A stretch of 64,000 bases of DNA from Shigella phage sb1. Shown piece after piece: positions 575 to 3,712 of the stretch. Positions within the stretch are counted from its first letter, which is position 1, and each line of letters starts with the position of its first letter. A program made the position numbers and the translations under genes. The notes beneath the pieces are model-generated. The model ran no database searches. It was not told the origin of the DNA and saw only the letters and a program-made list of their open reading frames with translations. The stretch lies in sequence record PQ666539; one strand, given 5' to 3'.

Positions 575-3712
<3,138 letters not shown>

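Follow-up and report, generated by a model that had tools for sequence, protein, structure and literature searches.

An in-frame TAA in the large terminase gene of Shigella phage sb1 is part of an unselected layer of G:C>T:A changes that spans the whole window

The 64,000-nucleotide stretch analyzed here as a whole (hereafter the window; sequence record PQ666539) comes from a T4-like phage (Tequatrovirus) of the pSs-1 group. It carries gene 17, encoding a T4-type large terminase (TerL), whose frame opens with an ATG at 1880 and closes with a normal stop at 3710-3712. Two in-frame stops lie inside it, a TGA at codon 366 and a TAA at codon 528, and the frame is continuous beyond the TAA (Table 1). 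In the mechanical ORF listing the region appears as three pieces (1880-2977, 2978-3463 and 3470-3712). The original prediction had reported the TAA as the second of two stops in this gene, and it is indeed present, with the flanking peptide exactly as quoted. When the 610 codons are read continuously, the product aligns with T4 gp17 (PDB 3EZK and 3CPE) over residues 1-577 at approximately 98% identity. Both the N-terminal ATPase domain and the C-terminal RNase H-like nuclease domain are present, as judged from this alignment and from Pfam (Terminase_6N, residues 158-369, 1.5e-53; Terminase_6C, residues 399-572, 2.4e-32). The nuclease catalytic triad of T4 gp17 consists of D401, E458 and D542 (PMC3012670), and all three residues are the same as those of T4 in the continuous frame of the window. 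The codon for Asp542 is intact and in frame 14 codons past the TAA. In all relatives the gene product is annotated as the terminase large subunit. A single uninterrupted ORF for both domains, as expected of a T4-type large terminase, is the one feature that fails here, and we ascribe its absence to a sequence error rather than to the gene itself.

Termination at codon 528 would remove residues 528-610. The C-terminal nuclease region had been expected to be lost in that case; this holds for Asp542 and the end of Terminase_6C, but not for the nuclease domain as a whole. The upstream TGA, which falls close to where the ATPase domain meets the nuclease domain, would already remove the entire C-terminal domain of gp17. 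Nonsense mutants of T4 genes 16 and 17 show a null phenotype with empty proheads (PMC3012670).

Table 1. Coordinates of gene 17, of in-frame stops and of the substitution layer in the window
Feature	Position	Strand	Details	Basis
Gene 17, T4-type large terminase (TerL)	1880..3712	+	610 codons, two in-frame stops inside	alignment, Pfam, relatives' annotation
First in-frame stop of gene 17, TGA	2975..2977	+	codon 366; ancestral GGA (Gly366); private G>T at 2975	
Second in-frame stop of gene 17, TAA	3461..3463	+	codon 528; ancestral GAA (Glu528); private G>T at 3461	
Asp542 codon of gene 17, nuclease catalytic residue	3503..3505	+	intact, in frame, 14 codons past the TAA	sequence, alignment
In-frame TAA in gene 16 (small terminase)	1858..1860	+	codon 153 of 164; ancestral GAA; private G>T	
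In-frame TAA in gene 18 (tail sheath)	4125..4127	+	ancestral GAA; G>T; common to Shigella phage sb2 (PQ666540) only	
Layer of private G:C>T:A transversions	1..64000	.	approximately 1% of G:C sites	substitution counts
Private nonsense changes, examples (1)	8724, 8814, 10043, 10312, 11618, 21609, 22634, 23075, 23897		11618: major capsid, T>A	
Private nonsense changes, examples (2)	25686, 29451, 43198, 43384, 43665, 44240, 44393, 48399, 48402			

Comparison with relatives traces each of these terminase stops to a single base. The window reads T at position 3461, where Escherichia phage Killian, Shigella phage sb2 and T4 all read G, and the same is true of position 2975 in gene 17 and position 1858 in gene 16. 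The alignment to T4 gp17, which had been proposed as a check, places a Glu of T4 at codon 528 and a Gly at codon 366 (3EZK, 3CPE), so that the suggested origin of the TAA from GAA (Glu) is borne out by a G>T change at 3461. We also searched a collection of phage records without PQ666539 using the 61-mer centred on the TAA: none of 469 records was identical, and with the G restored 199 were. Four contigs from IMG/VR and metagenomes share the flanks, and all four have GAA at codon 528. No exact match to the TAA-bearing 44-mer was present in viral contigs and none was found in genome contigs, nor did the first gene 17 fragment match any recorded gene product exactly. The relatives sb2, sb3 and sb4 have an unbroken gene 17. 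According to the original prediction, a sense codon at this position in a reference would speak against it; every relative examined has one, always GAA, and a stop at codon 528 was seen in none of those inspected. The T at 3461 is thus private to the window sequence.

To place this change in its genomic setting, we mapped the window's first 50 kb onto three reference genomes (sb2, pSs-1 and Ec_YwIITB1) and counted as private those substitutions at which one genome differs while the three references agree. The window has 105 private G>T and 107 private C>A changes in this region, compared with 22 and 17 in sb2, 13 and 7 in pSs-1, and 21 and 17 in Ec_YwIITB1, that is, a total of 212 versus 20-39 in the control genomes. 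A comparison of six genomes gave 94 G>T and 98 C>A for the window and 3-16 for sb2, pSs-1 and Ec_YwIITB1, and the excess extends to the segment from 49.5 to 64 kb (45 C>A and 41 G>T, 86 in total; controls, 2-10). Transition counts are alike in all four genomes. The G:C>T:A changes are evenly distributed (11-25 per 4 kb) and strand-symmetric, and they have no preference for particular flanking bases (CCG, 7 observed versus 6.4 expected; overall context test, p = 0.04). Neighbouring changes are randomly oriented as well, with 107 runs versus 107.0 expected and no coherence even below 50 bp. Other private transversions in positions 1-50000 (45 A>T, 28 T>A, 27 T>G and 21 A>C) are moderately above those of the control genomes; therefore, the error layer is not purely G:C>T:A. 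The first 50 kb showed only one private indel, an extra base pair at 37161 that all five relatives lack. This single indel rules out Nanopore, Ion Torrent and other indel-prone errors, and also long-term pseudogene decay. Systematic miscalls tied to sequence context, such as those at modified cytosines, are ruled out by the lack of a flanking-base preference.

The coding effect of these changes was evaluated with genes called on a version of the window in which the private changes had been reverted. Among 200 genic private G:C>T:A changes, 26 are nonsense, 151 missense and 23 synonymous, and random G:C>T:A changes in the same genes would be expected to give approximately 24, 158 and 18, respectively (11.8%, 79.2% and 9.0%). 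The private transitions of the window, on the other hand, comprise 301 synonymous changes (80%), 74 missense changes and no nonsense change. The G:C>T:A layer is therefore unselected, its coding effect matching the neutral expectation, and the TAA at codon 528 belongs to it. The TAA in gene 16 is another product of this layer. Altogether, the first 50 kb has 29 private stops in approximately 20 genes, with TAA, TAG and TGA all represented; the genes concerned include those for the small and large terminase, scaffold, major capsid, baseplate hub, tube, Alt, RNA ligase 1 and NrdA, among others. Beside gene 17, the layer has broken genes 16, 18, 22, 23, 27, 29, 48 and many more. Gene 17 itself offers 85 sites at which a G:C>T:A change creates a stop, and the expected number of stops is 0.88, with a probability of 0.22 for two or more. 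With approximately 1% of G:C sites changed and 85 stop-capable sites, the two stops of gene 17 need no special cause, although a stop at codon 528 would far exceed chance in a genome free of such changes. The truncated terminase that the original prediction implied for the real phage consequently finds no support, since the TAA is one member of a window-wide unselected layer.

The private missense changes of gene 17 tell the same story. They include P25T, K46N, N181I, D242E and T286K, are mostly G:C>T:A or other transversions, and are further damage by the same layer. Together with the stops at codons 366 and 528, several such missense changes are what distinguishes gene 17 of the window from T4 gp17, with which it shares the 610-codon frame and both domains. 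The true gene 17 is very probably intact, an ordinary large terminase gene of the T4 type and orthologous to that of T4 gp17. The change T286K results from a private C>A at 2736 and lies within residues 285-287, a TTT stretch in the ATPase domain.

The set of stops also bears on two readings in which the TAA would be a genuine property of the phage. The first is that of a conditional-lethal ochre mutant of gene 17, maintained on a suppressor host like the mutants used in T4 genetics. Such nonsense mutants do exist for T4 genes 16 and 17 (PMC3012670), and GAA to TAA needs only one base. However, ochre, opal and amber codons occur here together, 29 of them in approximately 20 genes within 50 kb, for which no single suppressor host suffices; the unselected missense changes at a matching rate indicate that the rest of the genome is not under normal selection either, and the relatives were isolated from the environment and are not laboratory T4. 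We consider such a mutant highly improbable. The second reading is recoding, whereby reassignment, a suppressor tRNA or programmed readthrough would let TAA encode an amino acid, or ribosomes would bypass it as in T4 gene 60. Recoding would agree with the undisturbed frame past the TAA and with the conservation of the downstream sequence, including Asp542. Nevertheless, TAA in the window aligns with GAA, TCA, TAC and TTA, TGA with GGA, AGA and TCA, and TAG with GAG, so that all three stop codons are used and six amino acids (Glu, Gly, Ser, Tyr, Leu and Arg) are replaced. Moreover, genes still close with normal stops, no tRNA gene was found within the 64-kb window, and the lack of any relative with a stop at codon 528 leaves no conserved signal. 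The probability of recoding is accordingly negligible.

More than 780 phage records match most of the length of the stretch 1400-5800, the best matches being Killian (99.0%) and sb2 (97.8%). Over 50 kb, the closest genomes are Ec_YwIITB1, sb2, sb3, sb4, pSs-1 and KNP5, at approximately 96-97%. Several of these come from the same study as the window, which described four lake-water phages from Kolkata as one series (ADG1, AKR2, CDR3 and TMC4), sequenced from Twist enzymatic-fragmentation libraries on an Illumina NovaSeq 6000 and assembled with SKESA (PMC11993411). ADG1 (PQ666539) has 164,945 bp, the lowest G+C content of the series (35.16%) and 285 proteins; AKR2 (PQ666540, record sb2) has a G+C content of 35.49% and 254 proteins, CDR3 (PQ666541, record sb3) 35.52% and 255, and TMC4 (PQ666542, record sb4) 35.35% and 291 (PMC11993411). 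The protein count of ADG1 is inflated. Over the shared region, G+C rises from 35.86 in the window through 36.00 in sb4 to 36.10 in sb2 and a similar 36.13 in sb3, an order that mirrors the published whole-genome figures (PMC11993411).

The record sb4 bears the same signature as the window, with 51 private G>T and 67 private C>A changes in approximately 46 kb. It belongs to the same phage group and shares the G>T/C>A excess, but the load of the window is about twice as high. Dozens of essential genes are broken into two to four pieces in the annotation of sb4, and the genes divided there include gp14, gp15, the small terminase, uvsW, gp27, gp28, gp48, alt, ligase and RNA ligases. The major capsid gene, hoc and nrdB are also split in Ec_YwIITB1 (PQ356294). 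One nonsense change of the window, the TAA in gene 18, is also found in sb2 and in no further record, and the annotation of sb2 breaks the sheath gene at the same point; it is the sole nonsense change that the two have in common. Random errors would give such a coincidence about one time in six by a rough estimate, and the shared TAA reflects either coincidence or a shared origin or cross-contamination of the data sets.

Taken together, the TAA very probably reflects an erroneous base in the record and no property of the phage, with GAA (Glu528) as the real codon. The window consists of two superimposed layers. The base layer is the natural divergence of a Tequatrovirus of the pSs-1 group, made up mostly of synonymous transitions. 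The second is a layer of G:C>T:A changes on approximately 1% of G:C pairs, independent of one another and blind to strand, context and codon position, which turns GAA, GAG, GGA, TCA or TAC into stops wherever it falls on the appropriate base, and which has struck gene 17 twice. A chimeric assembly of related phages would instead bring in natural, mostly synonymous variants and not a G:C>T:A layer. The second layer is probably of technical origin, stemming from the sequencing or assembly of this isolate from the Kolkata series that also yielded sb2, sb3 and sb4. Spurious signal in one dye channel during two-colour base calling, which would change G to T and C to A, is one candidate cause. Oxidative guanine damage fixed during library amplification is another, and computational noise would fit the flat, independent behaviour of the changes equally.

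Mispairing of 8-oxoguanine, like mutY/mutM-type spectra, produces G:C>T:A changes. The known C>A/G>T artefact of oxidative damage has a low allele fraction and a CCG>CAG context (Costello et al. 2013, PMC3616734). A bias between reads, with G>T in read 1 and C>A in read 2, is a further mark of such an artefact. The layer in the window resembles this artefact in its G>T/C>A excess (212 versus 20-39) and in being unselected and non-biological; it differs in that the changes stand in the consensus and CCG is not enriched. If only a few damaged template molecules had been sequenced, neighbouring changes would be expected to show strand coherence, which is absent in the window; this variant is unsupported, given the random orientation of neighbours.

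An alternative to a record error is that the substitutions were real in the sequenced DNA, left by oxidative or G:C>T:A mutator damage in genomes that were dead or complemented by co-infection, with few molecules sampled. G:C>T:A is a chemically meaningful class, corresponding to the 8-oxoguanine lesion (PMC3616734), the layer is essentially free of indels, and sibling records carry it to differing degrees, all of which would be in keeping with real damage. Against this, the coding effect equals the neutral expectation, and a genome with about 30 stops in essential genes could not propagate or form plaques. Furthermore, the consensus of a lysate cannot hold hundreds of unselected changes, and the context preference of guanine oxidation is missing, as is the strand coherence expected of few damaged templates. 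We therefore regard real damage as improbable. Still less probable is a biological load of this kind, in which a few packaged T4-like genomes would have been sampled after lethal mutagenesis by an oxidative or guanine-targeting host defence or by a transversion mutator polymerase; if this were true, the terminase stops would be a snapshot of mutational meltdown.

With a record error as the explanation, phage biology is unaffected, and the terminase is an ordinary orthologue of T4 gp17. The consequence is one of data hygiene: the window and at least one public sibling (PQ666542) contain unselected transversions by the hundred, and dozens of essential genes are split as a result. Such transversions inflate gene counts, lower the G+C content and create false truncated proteins, and scans of the window for in-frame stops will yield many findings with one trivial cause. 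The spectrum of private substitutions and the ratio of synonymous to nonsense changes, both determined against close relatives, provide a quick test for records of this type.

Two further observations concern the neighbourhood of gene 17. A segment of approximately 650 bp between genes 18 and 19 (5724-6380) is absent from T4 and Killian; it contains a 218-codon ORF, for which no Pfam match was obtained. Members of the pSs-1 group do have this segment, annotated as a hypothetical protein. In the relative ADUt, a 'homing endonuclease' is among the features under its match to positions 1400-5800 of the window.
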